From positions 1,502-65,501 of the forward strand of contig JABHCP010000002.1 of the NCBI GenBank assembly GCA_018673485.1: 64,000 bases of DNA. The letters run 5' to 3'. The first letter of the stretch is position 1, and each line of letters begins with the position of its first letter. The notes under the pieces are model-generated. The model was not told where the DNA came from, ran no database searches, and saw only the letters and a program-made list of their open reading frames with translations. The DNA is from Candidatus Uhrbacteria bacterium (GTDB taxonomy: Bacteria > Patescibacteriota > Patescibacteriia > UBA9934). A program made the translations under genes and the position numbers. Below are positions 4,631-60,860 of the stretch, in pieces.

Positions 4631-4736
4631 ATGTATTAGTCTTGAGAGGGTCTCCCTGACTTGCTGGCAAGCAGGTCCTAGACGTCGAGATGGGAATTAA
4701 TGCTAACCATTTCGAACGGAGTGAGAAATCTTCTAA
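4631..4736. repeat. intergenic hairpin repeat module (family B copy 1)
   Basis: Shares gcaggtcctagRcgtcgagatgg and ttcgaa...gagaaatcttc modules with copies at 13321-13493, 40203-40318, 50655-50758. Confidence 0.6.
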
Positions 4737-5711
4737 TTATATCAACTTAACTTTAACTCTCTTGAGAGCGGCCCTTGTTGGCCACTTGTTCAATATTCCA
4801 ATTTTTGCACCATATGACTGAATCACTGACTCCGCGTTTAACATCCCGACCTTGAGCGCCTCATCGATTCCCATTCCTTTTGCAAGCGCTGAAACTAGCC
4901 CTGATCCGAATGAATCTCCAGCACCAGTGCGTGATATCGCTTTCTTGCCTTGCGGTCTGATATACCAAGTTGTTCCATCCAGGTGAGCATATGCGCCATT
5001 TGGGCCATCTGTGATTATCACAGTGAGCCCGGGGAGCGCTAACTTCTCGCAAAGCTCTTTAATACTGGATTTATTATCTTTGGTGAGCTCTCGAGCTTCC
5101 TCAGTATTTAGATTAAACAGTGTTAGATGTTTCATGATCGGGAGCAGTTCCTTTAGTCCCTTGCTAAGCTCTCCGCCTCCAGGATTAAAGGCGATCAGTG
5201 TTTTGTTTTTGCGAGCTTCTTTTACAACTTTTAGAGCGAGCGATGTATTACCTGCCAGAGATGTAATATAGAGCCATTTTGATTTTAGCTTTTTAAGCGG
5301 TACGTCTTTGATTTGGAATTCGCTAGAAACACCACGATGAACGAGCGCACTGCGCTCTCCATTTTTTGCAGTTAGCAAAACACTATAACCAGTTGTACCT
5401 TTTTTGATTTTGTTAACGAGAGTTGTTTTGACGTTGAACTTTTTTAGATCATTGATCACTGACTCGGCAGCATCGTCGTCACCAACTCTGGTAATGACTG
5501 CGGTATTAAATCCAAGTGATGCAAATGTCGCAGCTGAGTTTGTTCCACCTCCACCAGTAGTTCTTACCACAGTCTCGACATCGATTTTACTTCCAAACGG
5601 AACGCACTCACCAACACCTGTTGAGAATTTGTCAGAATTAATAAGCTGAAAATTCTTTGATGCCAAGAAAACATCTCGAGTAGCTGATCCAATTGTTATG
5701 ATGTCGTACAT
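4737..5711 (-). CDS. PfkB-family carbohydrate kinase (ribokinase-like)
   Basis: N-terminal GGGGTNSAATFASLG and C-terminal GAGDSFGSGLVSALAKG signatures of the PfkB/ribokinase family. Confidence 0.85.
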   Translation of the reverse strand: MYDIITIGSATRDVFLASKNFQLINSDKFSTGVGECVPFGSKIDVETVVRTTGGGGTNSAATFASLGFNTAVITRVGDDDAAESVINDLKKFNVKTTLVNKIKKGTTGYSVLLTAKNGERSALVHRGVSSEFQIKDVPLKKLKSKWLYITSLAGNTSLALKVVKEARKNKTLIAFNPGGGELSKGLKELLPIMKHLTLFNLNTEEARELTKDNKSSIKELCEKLALPGLTVIITDGPNGAYAHLDGTTWYIRPQGKKAISRTGAGDSFGSGLVSALAKGMGIDEALKVGMLNAESVIQSYGAKIGILNKWPTRAALKRVKVKLI

Positions 5712-8579: not shown

Positions 8580-8655
8580 TGGTGGATCCGACGGGAGTCG
8601 AACCCGCATCCTCTGGTGACAAGCAAGATGAGGTTACCATTACCTCTACGGACCC
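8580..8655 (-). tRNA. tRNA, probably Thr (anticodon TGT)
   Basis: RC GGGTCCGTAGAGGTAATGGTAACCTCATCTTGCTTGTCACCAGAGGATGCGGGTTCGACTCCCGTCGGATCCACCA; good acceptor, D and T arms; anticodon arm has one mismatch and C37, so the isotype call is tentative. Confidence 0.6.
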
Positions 8656-8768
8656 ATTTCCCTGAGCTAATAAAATAAAAACAAGGATTTGCGTCCTTGT
8701 TGTTATTTGTCACCAGAGGCGAGTTCTTTTATAGAACCTCATCTAGCACTTCTATTACAGCATCTGAA

Positions 8769-9470
8769 CTATCTTCCGTCAATGCCCAGTGTTGATAAAA
8801 GCTCTCTTCGTTCTGTTTTTGTGAGTTGTCGATAGTTTCCGGGGCCAAGCTCACCGAGCTTTACATTCATTACTCGAATGCGTTTGAGTGTTGCAACTTC
8901 GTATCCGAGTGCTGTACACATCCTTCTGATTTGTCGGTTGCGACCTTCCTTGAGGATGATTTTAAATTTCTTTGGACCAAGATTTTTTACAGGTGCAGGA
9001 TTTGTTACTCGTCCGTCGAGCATCACGCCCTTTTTCATTCCATCGAGAAACTTTCGATTCATTTCTTTGTTCACAGTAACAACGTATTCTTTTTCATGCT
9101 CAAATTTTGGACTGGCAATTTTATTGGCAATATCGCCGTTATTTGTGAGAAGTAATAGTCCAGTAGACTCAACATCAATTCGACCAATGTAGATTAGGCG
9201 CTCATCAGAATCGATGTAGTCAAAAACGGTATTGTCGGCATCCTCATCTGAAGTGCAGATAACACCATATGGTTTGTGAAATGCGATGAAGACATCACCT
9301 GAGCGTGGTCTGATGAGCTCACCGTCGACATAGACCTTCTGTCCTTCTTCAACCTGCTGCCCAACTTTTGCCAGATCATTCCCAATAGTAACCCGACCGT
9401 CATCAATAAGCGTGTCGGCTTTTCGTCTTGAACAAAATCCAGAATCAGCAATGTATTTGTTTAGTCTCAT
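8769..9470 (-). CDS. rRNA pseudouridine synthase, RsuA/RluB family (S4 domain + catalytic domain)
   Basis: N-terminal S4 (LNKYIADSGFCSRRKADTLI), catalytic motifs HKPYGVICT and GRIDVESTGLLLLTNNG. Confidence 0.85.
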   Translation of the reverse strand: MRLNKYIADSGFCSRRKADTLIDDGRVTIGNDLAKVGQQVEEGQKVYVDGELIRPRSGDVFIAFHKPYGVICTSDEDADNTVFDYIDSDERLIYIGRIDVESTGLLLLTNNGDIANKIASPKFEHEKEYVVTVNKEMNRKFLDGMKKGVMLDGRVTNPAPVKNLGPKKFKIILKEGRNRQIRRMCTALGYEVATLKRIRVMNVKLGELGPGNYRQLTKTERRELLSTLGIDGR

Positions 9471-44654: not shown

Positions 44655-46160
44655 ATGTTACAATATGGGCATATGAAACGCTTGTCAGTATTATTTATTT
44701 TATTAATTGTTTTTTACGCACTTCCGTCGGCTGCTCAGGCAGCGGATGATGGTTGTAAATGTTTTTGTAGCTCCACTGAAGGTGCGTATCAATACTCAGA
44801 GGATGAAGTGGCCGACATCCTAACATGTCAGGATTTGTGCGACGACTATCTTGGTTGCTACGCGGATAATCCAAACACTGATGACGAAGATGAAAGCCTG
44901 ACACTTCAACCTAAGTACAACACAATGTGTTGGCAGAAGTATGAGTGTATAGAGTCAGAGGAGGGAGAAGTATCTGGTGAGTGGGCTGGTCAGCACCCAA
45001 GTTGTATACCAAACGAGGGGCATTGTTATTCTGAGGCGATACCAGTTACATTGAATATTGCGATTGGAAGTCTTACCGAGGCGACTAGTTTAGGGGAGTA
45101 CATTAATGCTGGTTATAGTTTTGCGTTAGCTGCCGGGTCATTACTAGCAATTGTAATGATAATGCTCGGTGGTATTCAGTACATGCTGGCGCGTGGGAAG
45201 CCAGAAGCAATTGGTAAGGCAAAGAGCAGAATCACAGGCGCGATAACTGGAATAGTGTTGTTGTTCGCGTCATATACTATAGCCAACGTGGTTGATCCAA
45301 GTTTCGCTACTTTTAATAGAGTAGCACCTCCTCGAATAAGAACGGTTGTTTTTCTAGATCCTGATTCAACGTGCGATGCAATGGATGAGGCTGGAATGAC
45401 CATTATACCTTCAACCGGTGCGTGCGGTGATCCTGGCATTGTTACGGACCTCGGAGCTACAGAGACAGGTATTGTTATTGGAGACGAGTGTGTTTATTCC
45501 GGGTGTAGTGATGATCTATCAGTTTGCGTTGGGTCGGTTGAAGCTGAAAGTGGATATGAATGTCAGAGATGTTACCAAGTAGCTGAAAGAGGTGCATATA
45601 CAGGCTCGGAAACATGGGGGTTATCTGATCTACCACCAAGCGATTCACAGTGTTCTCGAATGACACCAGTTGATAATTTTCCAGATGATAATTTGCGTTA
45701 TTACTGTTTGTACAATGAGGATGCAAATTCGGAGTGCGTAGAAGTTTCATATCCTGGAGGAGAGGCGGGTGTTGATTGCGATCGATTGATTGATGACGCA
45801 CGAGCAGCGGATAGTGAAGGTTGTCGAGCATATGATTTATTGGAAATTGGAATCTTCGATTTAGAGCTTCTAGGTTCAGGAGTGGACTATGTGGATATAG
45901 ATGAGTTTAGGAATGACGATTATGAATACGAGGTGTTACAAAAATTTTGCACCGAAGATGTATGCGAGCTCGCTCCAGACGGAGAGGGTTGTGTGATCAG
46001 TGTAGTTGAATATTCAGATGTACCAATGACTATTCTTCCCTCATTAAGTATTGGAGCCGACGATTTATGGGTCAATTGTACAAATACGAGTTCAGAAACG
46101 GGTATGAGTAATTGTTTAGATAAGGATGGAGGAGAGGCCGACTGCCAGTGGAATTGGTAA
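44655..46160 (+). CDS. secreted Cys-rich protein with a central double-TM hairpin (VirB2/TrbC pilin-like topology)
   Basis: Signal peptide; many Cys in both soluble regions; two adjacent TM helices separated by ARGKPEAIGKAKSR loop. Confidence 0.5.
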   Translation: MLQYGHMKRLSVLFILLIVFYALPSAAQAADDGCKCFCSSTEGAYQYSEDEVADILTCQDLCDDYLGCYADNPNTDDEDESLTLQPKYNTMCWQKYECIESEEGEVSGEWAGQHPSCIPNEGHCYSEAIPVTLNIAIGSLTEATSLGEYINAGYSFALAAGSLLAIVMIMLGGIQYMLARGKPEAIGKAKSRITGAITGIVLLFASYTIANVVDPSFATFNRVAPPRIRTVVFLDPDSTCDAMDEAGMTIIPSTGACGDPGIVTDLGATETGIVIGDECVYSGCSDDLSVCVGSVEAESGYECQRCYQVAERGAYTGSETWGLSDLPPSDSQCSRMTPVDNFPDDNLRYYCLYNEDANSECVEVSYPGGEAGVDCDRLIDDARAADSEGCRAYDLLEIGIFDLELLGSGVDYVDIDEFRNDDYEYEVLQKFCTEDVCELAPDGEGCVISVVEYSDVPMTILPSLSIGADDLWVNCTNTSSETGMSNCLDKDGGEADCQWNW

Positions 46161-54264: not shown

Positions 54265-54341
54265 TGGTGGGTCTGGCTGGACTCGAACCAGCGACCACGG
54301 AGGTATAAGCTCCGCGCTCTAACCAACTGAGCTACAGACCC
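54265..54341 (-). tRNA. tRNA-Ile (anticodon TAT)
   Basis: RC GGGTCTGTAGCTCAGTTGGTTAGAGCGCGGAGCTTATACCTCCGTGGTCGCTGGTTCGAGTCCAGCCAGACCCACCA; perfect cloverleaf; anticodon loop CTTATAC. Confidence 0.75.
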
Positions 54342-54468
54342 GTATCATTTTTGTCTGTAGCGAAGTTGGTCGGGAACCAACTGCCTGCCCGCCGAAGCTC
54401 GAAGAGCGAAGGCGGGAGCTACAGACCCATTTTATCAGCCAATAATTTACCGCGAAAATCAGCTCTTG

Positions 54469-54924
54469 TCAATGCACGTGGAACTCGTTTATTTTTCCGA
54501 TCGCTTCTGGTTTGCTTTCATCAAGCTTTTCGTCTACCCATGATTGATTACGGGCGCGCGATAGGAATAGGAGTATGGAGCCGAGTGCGAGCAAGCCTAC
54601 AAACCATATCACTCCCATCACAATAATCGAGAGCATTCCGCAGGCCATGACAGATGCGAGTTGCTCAAATATATCGTTAGCTTGTACTAGGCATGATTGT
54701 ATTTCATTGCGTCCGAATACGTATGCGGTGTGTGAGGCGCCGTAAGCGCATCCTATTGAAGCCAATGTGAATAGGCAGCTGAATTGCGCTTTGCGTAACT
54801 TTGCCACTTTGAAAAGTGCGGCAATGGAAAAAATGATACCACCAACAATCCAGTACAGAACAAACCATACGATGCCAACTGGAATTAGTAGCATCCATTC
54901 TTGCATATTAAAAAGTTTCAACAC
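54469..54924 (-). CDS. hypothetical polytopic membrane protein
   Basis: 151 aa, 4 predicted TM helices. Confidence 0.45.
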   Translation of the reverse strand: MLKLFNMQEWMLLIPVGIVWFVLYWIVGGIIFSIAALFKVAKLRKAQFSCLFTLASIGCAYGASHTAYVFGRNEIQSCLVQANDIFEQLASVMACGMLSIIVMGVIWFVGLLALGSILLFLSRARNQSWVDEKLDESKPEAIGKINEFHVH

Positions 54925-55159
54925 TATAGATCAAGAATAAAATCATGCCAGTACCAAAAGCAGCTATAAGCATAATCCAGGCAATAGTTTTTTGATTGCT
55001 GTCGTTGTGTCTATACCCTGAGATCAGGAAGTAGACAAATAGAAATAGTAGTAGTCCTGTTACAAAAAACATAAGATGCTTATCGAACTCTAGCACGTTT
55101 ATTATAAACGATCTATAAGTGGACGTCACGGAAAGCAAAAGGCCCTCCGGGGAGGGCAC
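54908..55159 (-). CDS. small membrane protein
   Basis: 83 aa, 2 TM helices, overlaps upstream gene by 17 nt. Confidence 0.35.
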   Translation of the reverse strand: MPSPEGLLLSVTSTYRSFIINVLEFDKHLMFFVTGLLLFLFVYFLISGYRHNDSNQKTIAWIMLIAAFGTGMILFLIYSVETF

Positions 55160-55177
55160 GATACGCGCAAGTAAGGA

Positions 55178-55768
55178 TTACCGGCGTCGTAGAGCAAGTA
55201 GGAGCACGATAAAGTCGAGTGCTGTGACGTTGATTGGGGCAACGATGTCGGTCCAGTGACCTTCCCACCGAATCCATACAACAATGATCTGCAACCCGAA
55301 TGCCATGCTCCAGATCAGCCAGGGGAGGCAGTGCTCTCTATCAGGTCTTTCCCACGTATATTTGAAGATCGGGAGGAACGACAGCAGGGTCGCGAACTGA
55401 AGGAGTATATTCGTGTAGGTTGCGTCATGCAACGCTAGCCCGGCTGTGATCGAGATCAGGCCAATCGCGATAATTCCTTGTTCAATCGGTGTGGGTTTGT
55501 TGAACTTTCCTCGCACTAGGAAAAATAGGAACGTGGCATTGCATCCGACTATTCCCACCAGTAGTGGCGCCGCTTTGAGGACATCGTCGTTCATCAGGAA
55601 GTAGGATATTCCTGATGCTGTTGCGATGCCGGCCCACATCGCCCACATGGTCGCATTTGGCTTTTTCTTCTTTTTGAGCACCAGATAATTGTATACGCCG
55701 ATACCAGTCAAGTTGAATGCCGCCGAGATGACAGCAAGGATGAAGTCAGGTGTAAGATATTCTTCCAA
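55178..55768 (-). CDS. hypothetical polytopic membrane protein
   Basis: 196 aa, about 6 TM helices; terminator hairpin gccctcc-gg-ggagggc at 55143-55162. Confidence 0.5.
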   Translation of the reverse strand: MEEYLTPDFILAVISAAFNLTGIGVYNYLVLKKKKKPNATMWAMWAGIATASGISYFLMNDDVLKAAPLLVGIVGCNATFLFFLVRGKFNKPTPIEQGIIAIGLISITAGLALHDATYTNILLQFATLLSFLPIFKYTWERPDREHCLPWLIWSMAFGLQIIVVWIRWEGHWTDIVAPINVTALDFIVLLLALRRR

Positions 55769-55850
55769 GGCGTCTCCCGTTGCATGGTATTAAAAGGGGC
55801 TCGTGGTGCTAGTTTTAACCATTTGTCATCATGCTGTCAATCAGATAATC

Positions 55851-55884
55851 AAAAAACCGCCTTTCGTGCGATTGGCGGTTTTAG
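55851..55884. terminator. conserved terminator hairpin aaaaaaccgcc-N11-ggcggtttt (copy 1 of 3)
   Basis: Nearly identical copies at 56925-56959 and 57670-57702. Confidence 0.65.
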
Positions 55885-55917
55885 GTTGTTTCATGTTTTG
55901 TAGTAGAATGTAGCAGT

Positions 55918-56910
55918 ATGAATATTTCATTAGAATTTTTATTGATTGCTGTTGGTTTAGCTGCTTTGGTTTTTGGATCATGGTATTACCAACAAAGGCA
56001 TAAGAAGACGAGCTCAGGGGACGCGCCGCTTTATGTTAAAGACATACTTGCAAAAGCACGCGCTGGAAAGTTGGACCCATTTTTAGGAAGGGAAGATGAG
56101 ATTGAGCGCACAATGCATATTGTGCTTAGAAGGATGAAAAATAATCCGTTGCTCATTGGCCAGCCTGGAGTTGGTAAGACTGCGATTGTGGAAGGTCTTG
56201 CAAATAAGATGGCAGATGGTAGTGCGCCGCAGGGCATTCTTGGCAAGGCATTGCTCGAGCTGGACTTTGTGGGATTGATGTCCGAGACTAAGTATCGTGG
56301 CGAGATGGAAAAACGACTGCGATCTCTAATGAAATATCTGGAGTCATTCAACGGGAACGTTATTTTGTTTATTGACGAGATTCACTTGTTAGAAGAGATA
56401 GGTAGTTCCGAGGGGGCACTTAGTATTACTGATGTGTTGAAGCCAGCTTTGGCCCGTGGAGAGATTCAGGTTATAGGAGCTACAACATGGTCTGAATATG
56501 AGAAGTATATAAAGCCAGATCAGGCACTAGACCGAAGATTGCAGCCCGTGTTAGTTGATGAGCCTTCGTCTGATCAGGCGTTGGAGATCTTGCAAGGACT
56601 TCGCAGTGTTTATGAGGAGTTTCACAATGTTGTAATTAGTGACGCTGCGTTAAAAGCGGCGGTTGAACTGTCTGACAAGAAGATAGAGGAGCGTTATTTG
56701 CCAGATAAGGCGATTGATTTGATCGATGAGGCGTCGGCAAAGGTTTCAATCGAGGCCTCCAGAGCACACAAGGTTCCATTGGGAGTCGTGCACGCAGCGT
56801 CCCATGGCGACAAGGCAAAAGTGGGAGTGAAAGACATTGAAAGCGTTGTTGATCAGTGGGTAATTCATTCAAAGGAAGACAAAAAACGCGATGCCCGTCA
56901 GGACGATTAA
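55918..56910 (+). CDS. membrane-anchored AAA+ ATPase consisting only of a Clp/Hsp100 D1 module
   Basis: N-terminal TM helix then ClpB/ClpC D1 with Walker A LIGQPGVGKTAIVEGLA, ILFIDEIH, and LPDKAIDLIDEA; no N-domain, middle domain or D2. Confidence 0.7.
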   Translation: MNISLEFLLIAVGLAALVFGSWYYQQRHKKTSSGDAPLYVKDILAKARAGKLDPFLGREDEIERTMHIVLRRMKNNPLLIGQPGVGKTAIVEGLANKMADGSAPQGILGKALLELDFVGLMSETKYRGEMEKRLRSLMKYLESFNGNVILFIDEIHLLEEIGSSEGALSITDVLKPALARGEIQVIGATTWSEYEKYIKPDQALDRRLQPVLVDEPSSDQALEILQGLRSVYEEFHNVVISDAALKAAVELSDKKIEERYLPDKAIDLIDEASAKVSIEASRAHKVPLGVVHAASHGDKAKVGVKDIESVVDQWVIHSKEDKKRDARQDD

Positions 56911-56924
56911 AAAGAACTTCTAAC

Positions 56925-56959
56925 AAAAAACCGCCATTCATACGAAAGGCGGTTTTTTG
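56925..56959. terminator. conserved terminator hairpin (copy 2 of 3)
   Basis: aaaaaaccgccattcatacgaaaggcggtttttt. Confidence 0.65.
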
Positions 56960-56964
56960 ATTCT

Positions 56965-57666
56965 TTAGTAAGTGATTGTATTTCCGACAATTGGCAGGCT
57001 TCTTATTCCACGAGCTCCACGCATGATACCTCTGTCATCTGACCAAGAGACTGCTGAGGCTATGCTTGGAATGGATACCATTATTGAGTCATCGGAGACA
57101 GCGCTCGCTGCATATGTATCTATGTATAAGCTGAAGGTCTGAGCTGCTCCACCGTTTGGAAGGCGAATCATGCTAGGGAAGGTAGCTCGTGCGAAGGCTA
57201 CGGTCTCAGAGCCAACGCATGGTAAGAGCTCGTCATTAAAGAATTGCCAAGCTCCTGATGCGTCAACGCGATTTCCTCCAGTGTCATAGATTGCCCATTC
57301 TGATGTGCTGCCTAATTGATCACAGGTGTTCCATAGCGATCCAGCGTTGTCTGTTGTATTTATCTCAAACAGAGTTTCGCCTACTTCAATGTTCACGCGC
57401 TGTGGGGCAACGGAATACCTTAGTACCTCGCTGTGTCCTGGGACGCTAACTCCACTCGGTGAGCTAGCTGCAAGCGCGAAAATTGGAACCATGCGGCCTA
57501 AAATGAGCATGAAGCCGGCAGCGGCAATAGCTCCTGCGACTACAGCGACGGCAACTGCCACCGCGACTTTTGTTCGCGTCTTTGTCTTTGTGATTGTCAT
57601 TGTCATAGTAAAGATATTTATTAATGAATACATTATAGCATCACTATGTTGGCGATGTATATTCAT
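56965..57666 (-). CDS. hypothetical exported protein with (AV)n-rich TM anchor
   Basis: KVAVAVAVAVVAGAIAAAGFMLILG anchor; likely start MTMTITKTK. Confidence 0.5.
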   Translation of the reverse strand: MNIHRQHSDAIMYSLINIFTMTMTITKTKTRTKVAVAVAVAVVAGAIAAAGFMLILGRMVPIFALAASSPSGVSVPGHSEVLRYSVAPQRVNIEVGETLFEINTTDNAGSLWNTCDQLGSTSEWAIYDTGGNRVDASGAWQFFNDELLPCVGSETVAFARATFPSMIRLPNGGAAQTFSLYIDTYAASAVSDDSIMVSIPSIASAVSWSDDRGIMRGARGIRSLPIVGNTITY

Positions 57667-57669
57667 TGC

Positions 57670-57702
57670 AAAAAACCGCCTTTCATACGATTGGCGGTTT
57701 TT
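57670..57702. terminator. conserved terminator hairpin (copy 3 of 3)
   Basis: aaaaaaccgcctttcatacgattggcggttttt. Confidence 0.65.
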
Positions 57703-59143
57703 ATATTTGAGTTTTTATATATTCCTGTGCTTGGGGTCTAGTTTGAATTTTGTTTACTAGTTGCAGGTCGCGAACTTTGTCGAGTAAGTCGCGGAAGTGT
57801 ATTCCGGGTTCAAGTCCGAGTTCGATTAGATCTTTTCCAGAGACAAGTTTTGGATAGCACTGCGAGCAGTAGTGGTCGTATAGTCGCTTTGCGTTGTGGA
57901 TCCTCTCTGATGTCGCTGAGTGTGCACCTTTAACTAGTTCGATTGCGTGGATGAAGGCTAATAGCTGCTGACCCTTTTGTGTGCAGAACATTTTTTCAAA
58001 AGCACTTGGGCGCATTCCGGCTGGATCTTCAGTTTCAAGAATGTGTCTGTTGTCCAAAAGCCATGCGACAACATCACAATCAATCCGTGCCCAGTGGTTT
58101 GTAGGGAATTGATGTAAATACAATTGTCGACATAGGTGAAGCGCGTGCTCGTGCTCGTCTGAAAATACACTTAGTGCGGCAATTAGAGCATTGGGGTGAA
58201 TCTTGTCGAGTTTGTGACGGGCTAAAAAGCTTGGTCGGTGCAACATGTGCAGTAGGTCTTTTGTTTTTTCAAAAGCATTACTGTTGTCGTCGAGCGTGAT
58301 TGTTTTCTGCTCATGCAACCAAGGTATGAAAAGTTCGATTGCGCCTGCTTCGTCCCAAAGGTTGAGCGTGTGAACGGGGTGGGATATAAATCCAAGCAAG
58401 AATTCCTTACCAATTGCATCACGTGGAATTACATATTTAAAAGTACCATCGTCAGTCACTACTTTGTTATTCAAGACGTCCAGGTTATTACAAATCGCTG
58501 ACCAAGTTTCTTGTTCAATTCCAAACCTGAGTTGAGACGCAAACCTGAGCCCTCGTAATATTCGAGTAGCATCCTCGTAGAAGCGAGCCTCAGGGGAGAG
58601 CACGGTCCTGATTAATTGGTGTCCTAAATCCTGCATTCCATTGTGTGGATCGATGAGTTCACGAGATTGAATATCAAACGCAATTGCATTAATTGTATAG
58701 TCGCGACGTGAAAGATCTTCTTTGATTGATAATCTAAAGTCGGTTTCAACTACCTGATCTTTGCGACCGCTTCGGTGTTCATCTGCAATCTGTTCAGTTC
58801 GAGGCAGAGCGATGTCGATTGGCTGCATGTCGCGACATCCGTGTGGAGTGAACTTGAATGTTCCAAATCGTTCTCCTACAAAACGCACTGCACCTTGGCG
58901 TGAGAGCCACCGCTCAATTGTTTTTGCAGGAACACCTCGCACAACAAGATCAACGTCTTCAGGACTAGATCCTAAAAGAACATCACGAACAGTTCCACCG
59001 ACTAAATAGATTTGTGCCTCAGGGTGATCGCTTAAAAACAAAGATGTCCACGTCAGGCGCGGTTCAGACTCAACAAAATTAGCAACGCGAAATTCAGGCG
59101 CTGCGGATTTATGAGCATAGTGAATAAGTAATCCTCCGATCAT
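57701..59143 (-). CDS. cca: CCA-adding tRNA nucleotidyltransferase (pol beta NT domain + HD-like C-terminal region)
   Basis: YLVGGTVRDVLLG ... DVDLVV head-domain motifs. Confidence 0.85.
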   Translation of the reverse strand: MIGGLLIHYAHKSAAPEFRVANFVESEPRLTWTSLFLSDHPEAQIYLVGGTVRDVLLGSSPEDVDLVVRGVPAKTIERWLSRQGAVRFVGERFGTFKFTPHGCRDMQPIDIALPRTEQIADEHRSGRKDQVVETDFRLSIKEDLSRRDYTINAIAFDIQSRELIDPHNGMQDLGHQLIRTVLSPEARFYEDATRILRGLRFASQLRFGIEQETWSAICNNLDVLNNKVVTDDGTFKYVIPRDAIGKEFLLGFISHPVHTLNLWDEAGAIELFIPWLHEQKTITLDDNSNAFEKTKDLLHMLHRPSFLARHKLDKIHPNALIAALSVFSDEHEHALHLCRQLYLHQFPTNHWARIDCDVVAWLLDNRHILETEDPAGMRPSAFEKMFCTQKGQQLLAFIHAIELVKGAHSATSERIHNAKRLYDHYCSQCYPKLVSGKDLIELGLEPGIHFRDLLDKVRDLQLVNKIQTRPQAQEYIKTQI

Positions 59144-59408
59144 GGAAATATTATATCAAAAGTATTCAGTATGCAGTAGGCAGTATACAGTTTTTGTCCC
59201 CCTCCTTTTTACCCTTCAATATAACTCAGGGTACCCTGAGCGAAGTCGAATGGGTAAGGAGGGGCCAGGGGTGGTTATAATATAGCTTCAATCTTTCGAG
59301 TTAAAAAGCAAACGACCCTGAACCGTAGTGATTCAGGGCGCGGCCGCACCCGACGAATTCGGGGGCGGTTGGAGATGTAGTCAAATTGGGATTACGGATT
59401 TGGCATGA

Positions 59409-59666
59409 CTAGTTCTGGTCATGTCGCACCATGTCCAGAAATTCATCAATTGTCAAATTGGTATTGATTTTATCGCTTTCAAAATCTAAGTCGTGTACTC
59501 TCTCCAATTCGAAAGTGATCTCTACAAAATGAAGGCTATCTATGCTCAGTGAGGCGAGTGATAGCGAGGTGTTGATCTTGGACCACTCGTCAGGATCCAG
59601 AAAGCCCCTGATCTTGAGAGATTGACAAACTTCACAAAAGATACGAAAGAGCTGCTTGCGATCCAT
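59409..59666 (-). CDS. small acidic acyl-carrier-protein-like protein (Ser present in IDSL)
   Basis: LSIDSLHFVEITFELERVHDLDFESDKI ... TIDEFLDMV matches ACP/DltC-type carrier fold. Confidence 0.5.
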   Translation of the reverse strand: MDRKQLFRIFCEVCQSLKIRGFLDPDEWSKINTSLSLASLSIDSLHFVEITFELERVHDLDFESDKINTNLTIDEFLDMVRHDQN

Positions 59667-59808: not shown

Positions 59809-60090
59809 CTAGTCCTTGGTGTGTTCTGGTGTCGTGGCAAGCTCTGCTATCACCTTATCGGCAAGCTCATCGAGAGTGTTCGCAGGTGTGACCTCAAGTC
59901 GAACCTCATAGTCGTGGTCGATCTCATCGAGTACTTCTTCGAGGTCGAGACGCAGATCGTCAGGGTCTTCATTGTCCATGATGTTGTCGAGCCTTTCGTT
60001 GGCTCGCAAGACCAGGTTGCCAGAGGTAAACCCGAGACTGGTGATCATGCCAGCGATCGCCCTGAGAACTTCTTCACGCGTATGTTTCAT
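59809..60090 (-). CDS. small acidic ACP-like protein lacking the conserved Ser
   Basis: DDLRLDLEEVLDEIDHDYEVRLEV ... LDELADKVIAEL; same promoter and terminator modules as neighbours. Confidence 0.5.
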   Translation of the reverse strand: MKHTREEVLRAIAGMITSLGFTSGNLVLRANERLDNIMDNEDPDDLRLDLEEVLDEIDHDYEVRLEVTPANTLDELADKVIAELATTPEHTKD

Positions 60091-60248
60091 GATTCCTCCG
60101 AGGTTTGATGTATGTCGGTCAGATTTTGACCTGCAGTCACGTCAAGGTTTTATCGCGATAATTAAAGTTTGTCAAAAAGCACAAACCCTGAACCATTACG
60201 ATTCAGGGCGCGACCGCACTTGGAGTACCAGGTGCGGCGTGAGACGGG

Positions 60249-60860
60249 TTATTGGAAGATGAGTCTGAACACTTCGTCAACGAGTTCGTTGATTGTGTTG
60301 CTTGGCGTGATGCCTTCAAGCGAAATTCCGAACCCTTCAGCAGTTTTATCGATTATTCCCTGGAATTTATCATCGGGAATTCCAATCTGTTGGAGCGTGC
60401 AATGCCTATCTTCCATCGTAAGAGTTCTATCGAGTAGGGTTACAAAATTGCATACTGCCAAGATGCTATCAGACACATGTACGCGTGTGATGCCTTCTTC
60501 AAGGAGTTCGGGGTCACTCTTGGATTGAGCTATAGATATGTCAGTCCATTGCCCGATAGCTTGCTCAGAGCTCAATTCAGGATCGCTGTCACCTTCGTTT
60601 TCGATTTCATCTGAATCTTTTGGCCTAGGGCTATAATCCAAGACCAGACCGACAAGTTGATTGAGCGTGAAATCGAGCGTTAGGCCTCTGATGCGCAGCT
60701 CAAAGTCATTATGAATGTATCTGGTAATAGCTTTCAAGGCATCTGTATCGATGCCAAGTTCTTCCAAAGTTCTATCCCCATCATGCGCTTCAATTGATTT
60801 GGTGGAATGAGTGATTTCAATGTGAAGCGCGATCTCCTCGAATAGATCTCCATGCGTCAT
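60249..60860 (-). CDS. tandem two-domain ACP-like acidic protein
   Basis: Two carrier-like repeats (LEELGIDTDALKAI ... and AEGFGISLEGITPSNTINELVDEV). Confidence 0.5.
   Translation of the reverse strand: MTHGDLFEEIALHIEITHSTKSIEAHDGDRTLEELGIDTDALKAITRYIHNDFELRIRGLTLDFTLNQLVGLVLDYSPRPKDSDEIENEGDSDPELSSEQAIGQWTDISIAQSKSDPELLEEGITRVHVSDSILAVCNFVTLLDRTLTMEDRHCTLQQIGIPDDKFQGIIDKTAEGFGISLEGITPSNTINELVDEVFRLIFQ

Follow-up and report, generated by a model that had tools for sequence, protein, structure and literature searches.

A membrane-anchored, D1-only Clp/Hsp100 ATPase of Candidatus Uhrbacteria and its gene module with TKT-signal and GT-C-fold proteins

In a 64,000-nucleotide stretch of a Candidatus Uhrbacteria contig (JABHCP010000002.1; hereafter the window), the gene at 55918..56910 encodes a 330-residue AAA+ ATPase that consists of an N-terminal transmembrane (TM) helix and the D1 module of the Clp/Hsp100 proteins. 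Comparison with related loci, numbered L001 onwards, confirmed this D1 gene as an intact member of an undescribed half-size Clp/Hsp100 family that is specific to Patescibacteria and found mostly in Uhrbacteria. Since genes of two further kinds recur beside it across loci, the conserved module is composed of the D1 motor and one or more envelope proteins with an N-terminal Lys/Arg-Thr signal (the TKT signal), with or without an enzyme of the GT-C fold; the window has the first two components. We consider it very probable that both the family and the gene module are real.

Architecture of the D1-only ATPase

The main elements of the protein, all encoded on the plus strand, are as follows.

55918..56910, +: membrane-anchored D1-only Clp/Hsp100 AAA+ ATPase, 330 residues (open reading frame, Pfam, NCBIfam, PDB and fold match)
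55924..55998, +: N-terminal TM anchor, residues 3-27, then a basic patch QQRHKK (Kyte-Doolittle profile, helix of the AlphaFold2 model, family)
56158..56181, +: Walker A GQPGVGKT, residues 81-88 (pattern G..G.GK[TS] in 120/120 family members)
56290..56304, +: pore-loop-1 motif KYRGE, residues 125-129 (aromatic-RG-[ED] in 110/120)
56362..56379, +: Walker B ILFIDE, residues 149-154 (117/120)
56533..56538, +: putative arginine-finger pair R206 R207 ([DENA]RR[LFM]Q in 119/120)
56851..56898, +: family-specific C-terminal tail DQWVIH...KRDAR, residues 312-327, where D2 starts in full-length Clp proteins

An earlier note on this DNA, made from the letters alone, had described a D1-only protein of 330 residues with an N-terminal TM helix and with no N-domain, middle domain (M-domain) or D2, and this description was borne out by the open reading frame and by each of the searches. 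Pfam placed AAA at residues 78-191 and AAA_lid_9 at residues 217-284, and gave no match to Clp_N, AAA_2 or ClpB_D2-small. With NCBIfam, residues 39-280 aligned to positions 159-400 of the 853 of ClpB and residues 30-320 to positions 162-438 of the 734 of ClpA, at scores far under the equivalog cut-offs (331 vs 1232 bits for ClpB, for example). Since these alignments are partial and their scores fall below the cut-offs, D1 alone is present. No M-domain was detected: the ClpB alignment ends at model position 400, and the AlphaFold2 model has only a short low-confidence loop at residues 284-296. The best PDB sequence matches are all D1 modules, from ClpC1 of M. tuberculosis, ClpC of B. subtilis and S. 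aureus, and ClpB (E ~1e-77), and the D1 is ~46-50% identical to that of ClpC1 and ClpB. The AlphaFold2 model, with a predicted local distance difference test (pLDDT) score of 82, superimposes on the D1 of ClpC1, ClpB and ClpA at 1.5-2.4 Å over ~276 columns. The N-terminus of the protein is hydrophobic (Kyte-Doolittle mean of 2.18 over residues 3-21) and is modelled as a helix at residues 5-27, followed by a disordered linker at residues 29-35.

The functional motifs are highly conserved in a 28-sequence alignment of the family. The residues G, V, G and K of Walker A are invariant, as are L150, F151, I152, D153 and E154 of Walker B (I149 nearly so), R127 and G128 of KYRGE, both R206 and R207, and W314 of the tail. 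The same alignment conserves the GATT sensor and the LPDKAIDLIDEA lid, and gives DQWVIH..E..KRDAR as the tail consensus; RD[AP]R occurs within the last 20 residues of 73/120 members. By homology to the D1 of ClpB and ClpC, KYRGE is probably the loop that grips the substrate, and the correspondence with R331/R332 of ClpB suggests that R206 and R207 act as arginine fingers. The protein thus shares with the D1 of ClpC/ClpC1, ClpB and ClpA the Walker A and B motifs, the KYRGE pore loop, the GATT sensor, the paired arginines and the lid, but, unlike them, it has no N-domain, M-domain, D2 or ClpP-binding loop, and has instead a TM anchor and a tail of its own. The ClpP-docking IGF/IGL loop is absent together with D2, which houses it in the two-ring Clp ATPases. 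Since the carrier of this loop is missing, labelling members of the D1-only family 'ATP-dependent Clp protease ATP-binding subunit', as databases do, is an over-annotation.

The other single-ring membrane ATPases were not matched at the sequence level: Pfam and NCBIfam gave no match to the peptidase M41 domain of FtsH, the N-domain of Bcs1 or the Msp1 clade, and the top matches were all Clp D1. The PADLOC defence models gave only weak generic AAA matches (TRIP13 and IetA, E 4e-6 to 6e-4), and membership of a known anti-phage defence system was rejected. No other Clp-like open reading frame is present within the 64 kb. At the start of the gene, the arrangement TAGAAT-N8-ATG, found at the same place in L001 as TAAAAT-N8-ATG, suggests a near-leaderless mRNA.

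Conservation and selection of the D1-only family

The family comprises at least 120 clusters, and the homolog set consisted of the top 120 matches in 5.8 billion proteins. All of these are 288-384 residues long and, where a source is named, it is always Uhrbacteria or Patescibacteria; a 100% identical protein (P0001) is itself named as Ca. Uhrbacteria. The truncation proposed for this single gene is therefore the rule among its relatives. An N-terminal hydrophobic segment is present in 112/120 members, and the mean net charge over the 120 is -0.6 before the TM segment and +2.8 after it. This bias places the ATPase in the cytoplasm and the N-terminus outside. A subfamily of 377-384 residues carries, in the alignment, an insertion of ~50 residues at the point where the M-domain or linker emerges in ClpB/ClpC, which suggests that the D1-only family descends from a ClpC/ClpB-like ancestor.

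Loss of the N-domain, M-domain and D2 could also be expected of a decaying clpB or clpC remnant, and the earlier note had named such a pseudogene as one outcome that would undo its description, and a D2 frameshifted downstream as something to look for. However, the same length and architecture are kept in at least 120 clusters with all motifs intact, and a TM helix and a C-terminal tail have been gained. In the closest relative, L001, the D1 is 79% identical. The proportion of nonsynonymous differences (pN) against L001 is 0.16, far below that of synonymous differences (pS, 0.88, synonymous sites being saturated), and a flanking housekeeping gene gives similar values; at the level of codon comparison, this argues clearly for purifying selection on the D1 gene. 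Furthermore, no remnant of D2 lies downstream: the 790 nucleotides 3' of the stop codon are taken up by a conserved gene on the opposite strand, and the plus-strand open reading frames there have no Pfam match. On these grounds the pseudogene and the frameshifted D2 were rejected, and we regard a pseudogene as extremely improbable. The locus was also recovered in at least three independent assemblies, being 100% identical in an ENA assembly and having the same gene order in a JGI assembly, so its arrangement is not an assembly artefact.

A second alternative for the protein itself is that it serves as a membrane tether, or as a mixed-ring subunit, for a full-length ClpC or ClpB encoded elsewhere, which it would bring to the membrane. 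The identity of ~46-50% to the D1 of ClpC1/ClpB would be compatible with this, as would the inter-protomer contacts generally known from Hsp100 D1 rings. On the other hand, no full-length Clp gene occurs at any of the 22 D1 loci compared, and the alignment shows a conserved tail peculiar to the family together with substitutions found only there, such as GATTW. The chance of such a mixed ring thus appears very slight.

TKT-signal proteins beside the ATPase gene

The gene that occupies the 3' flank of the D1 gene, 55 nucleotides from its stop codon, encodes a small protein of a type that recurs at the related loci, where PGY-repeat proteins carry the same N-terminal signal.

56965..57606, -: 213-residue TKT-signal protein (233 residues if the start is at 57666), recognized by homology to the C-termini of D1 neighbours
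L001 3944-4255; L002 8521-8883; L006 7883-8200; L009 2854-3261: PGY-repeat genes
L010 5443-5859; L084 9133-9408; L085 6043-6402: PGY-repeat genes

The 213-residue protein begins with TKTKTRTK and an Ala/Val/Gly-rich TM segment, followed by a C-terminal domain (CTD) of ~170 residues that ends in LPIVGNTITY. This CTD is homologous to the C-termini of 560-600-residue proteins adjoining D1 in L005, L013, L015, L017 and L082. It has 203 relatives in 1.84 billion representatives; in nearly all of the 150 of these that were listed it lies at the C-terminus, with endings LPxxGGT[IL]x[YF]. The CTD proteins all start with Lys/Arg-Thr repeats (TKTKT...) and then an Ala/Val/Gly-rich TM segment. Since short forms of ~205-231 residues are found elsewhere, the 213-residue copy is not a fragment; the closest short homolog, P0178, lies on a contig of only 1.4 kb, whose neighbours were not informative. 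The TKT signal is also carried by small proteins of 66-140 residues with (T/A)PGY repeats, encoded directly after the GT-C gene, and by large proteins abutting D1 in L010, L069 and L070, the last two being loci without a GT-C gene. In L001, the PGY frame that includes the signal begins before the called start codon and runs over the last part of the GT-C gene; the N-termini of the PGY proteins are therefore probably cut short in automatic gene calls. Neither the CTD protein nor the PGY peptides gave any Pfam, NCBIfam or PDB sequence match, and PADLOC had no match for the TKT-signal protein.

One uniform regular expression for the TKT signal was used to scan the D1 loci, the partner loci without D1, unrelated loci and the window. 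TKT-signal open reading frames were found in 18/22 D1 loci, always inside the immediate D1/GT-C cluster. Among the four misses, three have a TKT-like signal by eye and the contig of the fourth ends inside the partner gene. The signal was found in only 4/50 partner loci without D1, these being the closest partner homologs, in 0/10 unrelated loci (69 kb), and exactly once in the 64-kb window. Finally, a TKT-signal neighbour stands beside D1 in all three loci that have no GT-C gene (the window, L069 and L070). The 213-residue gene is a conserved functional neighbour of the D1 gene.

The GT-C-fold partner

A polytopic membrane protein of 691-697 residues is encoded next to D1 in L001 and L002, where the two genes share 23 nucleotides. 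This partner has no Pfam, NCBIfam or PDB sequence match and no PADLOC match. Its AlphaFold model (pLDDT 90.4, predicted TM-score 0.90) was matched by Foldseek to STT3 (E 2e-4) and AftA (E 7e-4), and the predicted structure fits the GT-C fold of AftA, STT3 and AglB, with a polytopic TM core and an extracytoplasmic C-terminal domain. The residues D211, H215, D257, H348, E490 and R497 are invariant in its alignment. In comparison with AftA, STT3/AglB/PglB and ArnT, the partner has no match at the sequence level, carries four extra N-terminal helices and possesses a conserved motif of its own, GFGFDPFxHRAAE.

A scan for the partner family over one genome per species yielded 64 loci, which belong to Patescibacteria wherever a lineage is named; most of the others bear uninformative or misassigned titles. 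D1 adjoins the closer partner homologs, and the distant homologs, from Magasanik-, Falkow- and Kuenenbacteria, have no D1 nearby. Among eight D1 loci sampled independently of the partner, the window included, the partner adjoins D1 in five; overall it does so in 19/22 D1 loci, often with an overlap of ~17-23 nucleotides. The pair occurs in four arrangements, namely with the partner gene downstream and overlapping, upstream, divergent or convergent. A ninth locus, reached through the partner protein and not through D1, again shows the overlapping pair. The partner was not found within 6 kb of D1 in the window, L069 or L070, and neither tblastn nor a hidden Markov model search detected it elsewhere in the 64-kb window. 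Likewise, no close ortholog from the organism of the window was present in the protein database (the best non-self match is 41% identical), which is not proof of absence. Two candidates for a partner from the same organism, P0128 and P0167, were discarded as belonging to other organisms. In this genome, the locus has lost its GT-C gene.

These distributions bear on the possibility that D1 regulates the GT-C enzyme itself, or serves it as a dedicated chaperone for assembly or remodelling, in the manner of NorQ/NorD for cNOR or of Torsin with LAP1. The overlap of the two genes in many loci, which suggests translational coupling, and the membrane location of both products would speak for such a role. 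However, D1 persists, and stays subject to purifying selection, at loci from which the GT-C gene is missing (the window, L069 and L070), the search for a close ortholog from the window's organism gave nothing nearer than the match mentioned above, and the GT-C family extends far wider than D1, with ~45 loci lacking it. A role dedicated to the GT-C enzyme therefore seems distinctly unlikely.

Some of the related loci carry further genes of note. In L083, the segment 9188-10613, ~2-4 kb from D1, carries genes for bAvd and for an RVT_1 reverse transcriptase, which are hallmarks of a diversity-generating retroelement. In L082, a gene for a 1906-residue SpvB / RHS-YD-shell / Ntox44 toxin (1-122) ends ~6 kb from D1. 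In L070, which has a D1 of the longer subfamily (377 residues), a TKT-like CARDB gene adjoins D1 and is followed by a Peptidase_M50 (site-2 protease) gene (8581-9255); this peptidase could be an enzyme that clears or processes signal-anchor segments.

A proposed role in membrane extraction

Taken as a whole, the mechanism that we propose, tentatively and at somewhat below even chances, is that of a dedicated dislocase pulling TKT-signal envelope proteins from the membrane. The D1-only protein would form a functional single hexameric ring, each subunit being fixed by one N-terminal TM helix with its ATPase in the cytoplasm. Solved hexamers of ClpB, ClpC and ClpA take in their substrate on the N-terminal side of D1. 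The TM anchor and a linker of ~12 residues at this substrate-entry face would keep the mouth of the pore against the cytoplasmic side of the membrane, so that, by analogy with these hexamers, the ring would be oriented to pull proteins out of the membrane and not to push them across. The KYRGE pore loops would grip the short, cytoplasmic and unstructured Lys/Thr-rich N-tails of the TKT-signal proteins, and the tail and the signal-anchor segment would be drawn out of the membrane. The purpose could be removal or clearance of signal anchors, or release or turnover of surface proteins. Where present, the GT-C enzyme would modify extracytoplasmic parts, for instance the PGY repeats or the C-terminal domain.

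Several points weigh against this scheme. The TKT tails are short, ~8-20 residues. The adjacency of the genes could reflect co-regulation of envelope genes and not an enzyme with its substrate. In addition, the regular expression for the TKT signal was written after examples had been seen, which makes the enrichment somewhat circular, although the controls and the window were scanned alike.

Msp1/ATAD1, FtsH and Bcs1 are built alike, with a TM helix at the N-terminus joined by a short linker to a single AAA ring whose entrance is turned to the membrane, and they extract or translocate membrane-associated proteins by pore-loop threading. These proteins are not sequence kin of the D1-only family, which has neither the protease domain of FtsH nor the Bcs1-specific domain. 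The resemblance raises the alternative of a general quality-control dislocase for membrane proteins, similar to Msp1/ATAD1 or to an FtsH without its protease, and with no specificity for TKT proteins or the GT-C enzyme. Any membrane extractase could be built from an N-terminal anchor helix, a single AAA ring and an intact pore loop, and the existence of D1 without a GT-C gene in the window, L069 and L070 is consistent with it. Yet adjacency to TKT genes, which are otherwise very rare, outlasts the shuffling of gene order and strand in 18-21 of the 22 loci, and a housekeeping dislocase would hardly follow a single small class of clients this closely. We thus consider a general dislocase unlikely.

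The proposed extraction of TKT-signal proteins could also be part of an unrecognised envelope sorting or processing system of the Uhrbacteria type, in which the TKT signal would mark the clients, the D1 motor would pull them and the GT-C enzyme would modify them outside. The clients in this case are the PGY-repeat peptides and the proteins whose C-terminal domain ends in LPxxGGTIxY/F. Such a system is conceivable but doubtful at present. Its logic, an odd N-terminal signal with a dedicated ATPase and glycosylation, recalls by analogy the accessory Sec system (SecA2/SecY2 and the serine-rich glycoproteins). There, however, the ATPase is a SecA and not an AAA+ protein, and the glycosyltransferases are cytoplasmic GT-A/B enzymes, whereas the GT-C enzyme here is extracytoplasmic. 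Moreover, no dedicated channel gene is found here, and the predicted ring orientation argues for pulling out instead of pushing across.

Clp/Hsp100-related ATPases that work at membranes with integral partners are represented by Torsin with LAP1/LULL1 and by HSP101 in the PTEX of Plasmodium. Torsin is D2-like, lumenal and has no arginine finger of its own, whereas the present protein is D1-only with its own putative RR fingers; HSP101 is a full two-ring ClpB-like protein. The genomic partners of the D1-only family also set it apart from the Clp/Hsp100 proteins in general, being envelope proteins and not ClpP, adaptors or DnaK.

Hairpins and rearrangement junctions around the D1 gene

Three near-identical terminator hairpins within 2 kb had been reported in the earlier note, and all three are present.

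55850..55888: hairpin T1, between two divergent genes, 30 nucleotides before the D1 ATG
56924..56962: hairpin T2, between the convergent D1 and TKT-signal genes, 14 nucleotides after the D1 stop codon
57669..57707: hairpin T3, where the PolyA_pol-family gene stops, upstream of a promoter-like site of the TKT-signal gene

The pattern AAAACCGCC-N(6-20)-GGCGGTTTT has exactly three matches, at 55853, 56927 and 57672, with 0 expected from shuffles. The loop of 11 nucleotides given earlier has to be corrected, as the N11 pattern found nothing and the loop has 12 nucleotides; similarity spans 39 nucleotides at each of the three sites. On the plus strand, the hairpins fold with energies between -17 and -20 kcal/mol and z-scores between -3.6 and -6.7, and all fold on the minus strand too, T2 having a perfect 12-bp stem at -20.3 kcal/mol on both strands. 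All three have the shape of a terminator (GC stem-loop, T-run and upstream A-run) on both strands. T2 and T3 lie at gene ends, and between them stands the 213-residue gene, whose promoter-like site (57661-57632, minus strand) is just past T3. T1 lies between divergent starts.

Comparison with L001 revealed two events at this locus. In the first, a 196-residue gene was inserted together with T1; T1 is absent at the orthologous site of L001 and forms the right edge of the insertion that carries 55178-55768. In the second, the GT-C gene, the PGY-peptide gene and a 135-residue gene were replaced by T2 and the 213-residue gene, T2 being located exactly where the GT-C gene of L001 begins. A stem orthologous to T3, with the same flanks and a loop larger by ~80 nucleotides, is present in L001 at 4686-4790. 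Because of this positional ortholog, T3 is taken as ancestral, and T1 and T2 are local copies at the two rearrangement junctions. The suggestion of a duplicated regulatory unit thus stands as far as the hairpin itself is concerned, but nothing larger than ~36-41 nucleotides is repeated.

Other members of the clade have unrelated hairpins with an A-tract, stem and T-tract at the same convergent junction. Near-identical hairpins also occur in unrelated metagenomic contigs (L072, L074, L077, L080 and others; GC 37-59%) with no shared flanks; L077 matches T3 at 36/38 nucleotides, and there are 11 matches against ~0.002 expected by a rough estimate. This points to strong convergence on one terminator sequence across unrelated organisms. 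Given both the unrelated hairpins at the same junction and the near-identical ones elsewhere, the hairpin shape is that of a generic bidirectional terminator, and what stands out here is only its near-identical recurrence, three times at one locus. The hairpins may then act as bidirectional intrinsic terminators or insulators. A point against this is T1, which has no gene to terminate; it may be an upstream insulator or a relic. Rfam gave no RNA family at the hairpins, its only matches being the tRNA described below and a sub-threshold opposite-strand match at the tRNA coordinates.

That T1-T3 are instead copies of a mobile palindromic element, of the repetitive extragenic palindromic (REP) or miniature inverted-repeat transposable element (MITE) kind, or operator sites of a common regulator, would account for several of these features. 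T1 stands between divergent promoters, where it has nothing to terminate; the D1 gene is flanked by T1 and T2, and T1 matches the reverse complement of T2 at 88% over 41 nucleotides; both of these hairpins fall on indel junctions relative to L001; and T1 and T3 are both just upstream of promoter-like sequences. However, there are only three copies in 64 kb and none elsewhere in the organism's contigs in a metagenome scan, and the succession of A-tract, GC stem and T-tract is the standard bidirectional terminator of the clade. The near-identical hairpins without shared flanks in unrelated organisms argue for convergence, and T3 has its positional ortholog in L001. Such an origin or function is therefore highly unlikely. 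A genome-wide REP-like element was not supported by the same copy counts in the window and in the organism's other metagenome contigs. An integron attC site or cassette was rejected as well: the hairpin sequences have no attC-like core, the genes point opposite ways, and D1 in L001 is syntenic without flanking hairpins.

A second pair of near-identical terminators, GCCCTGAATC-N5-GGTTCAGGGT, is found at 59315-59339 and 60185-60209 on the minus strand, behind small acidic open reading frames. Local duplication of terminators thus recurs in this genome.

Flanking genes

The genes that surround the module are listed below.

54469..55159, -: two small membrane-protein genes (151 and 83 residues), 75-77% identical in L001 and present at no other D1 locus
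55178..55768, -: polytopic membrane protein gene, 196 residues, a lineage-specific insertion with no counterpart in L001 or other loci
57701..59143, -: PolyA_pol-family gene (CCA-adding enzyme / poly(A) polymerase; Pfam PF01743), 480 residues, the synteny anchor, 78% identical in L001

The trio of membrane-protein genes at 54469-55768 had been put forward in the earlier note as possible partners of the ATPase. None of them recurs at the more distant D1 loci, and the 196-residue protein, which has no family match above threshold, is missing even from L001. The functional link was consequently rejected for want of conservation past L001 and because the 196-residue gene is lineage-specific.

Further from the D1 gene, a gene for a 495-residue product with a T4SS_pilin domain (PF18895) ends ~10 kb upstream (window ~45918-46160; L003 1-243). 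On the other side, a run of small acidic, paralogous-looking open reading frames occupies 59409-59666, 59809-60090 and 60249-60860, one of them with an ACP-like 'IDSL' motif; L001 holds a 26%-identical homolog of 206 residues at the syntenic place. The region 54265-54435 of the window, on the minus strand, includes a tRNA-Ile whose anticodon, UAU, is seldom found in bacteria. A partial copy of the 5' end of this tRNA (GGGTCTGTAGCTC...CAGTTGGTT), broken by a 33-nucleotide GC hairpin, lies ~75-90 nucleotides upstream of it. Window positions 54302-54372 are missing from L075 (840-960), a contig of this organism obtained from a different sample. This deletion joins the partial copy to the 3' half of the tRNA with the anticodon arm gone, and ARAGORN finds no tRNA there. 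The difference may be due to a deletion variant, to a collapse during assembly or to a scar left by integration.

Significance

The Hsp100/Clp proteins are textbook two-ring or D2-type machines. We found nothing relevant in the literature on a membrane-anchored D1-only Clp protein, or on the coupling of an AAA+ ATPase to a GT-C enzyme in bacteria of the Candidate Phyla Radiation, and we know of no GT-C enzyme coupled to an AAA+ ATPase. A conserved, membrane-anchored D1-only ring would show that D1 can work as a motor alone and would offer a minimal system for its study. If the sorting and processing system outlined above were true, it would provide the first example of a GT-C enzyme coupled with an AAA+ unfoldase, and also the first Hsp100-derived D1 ring shown to function by itself. 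For genome annotation, the name 'ATP-dependent Clp protease ATP-binding subunit' is misleading for the D1-only family, and three unannotated families can now be defined, namely the GT-C partner, the CTD and the PGY-repeat peptides with the TKT signal. The envelope biology of the Candidate Phyla Radiation is almost unknown, and it is the cell surface that mediates the episymbiotic lifestyle of these bacteria. The coupling of the D1 ATPase to a GT-C-fold enzyme and to a new signal points to an undescribed pathway of cell-surface biogenesis in this radiation.

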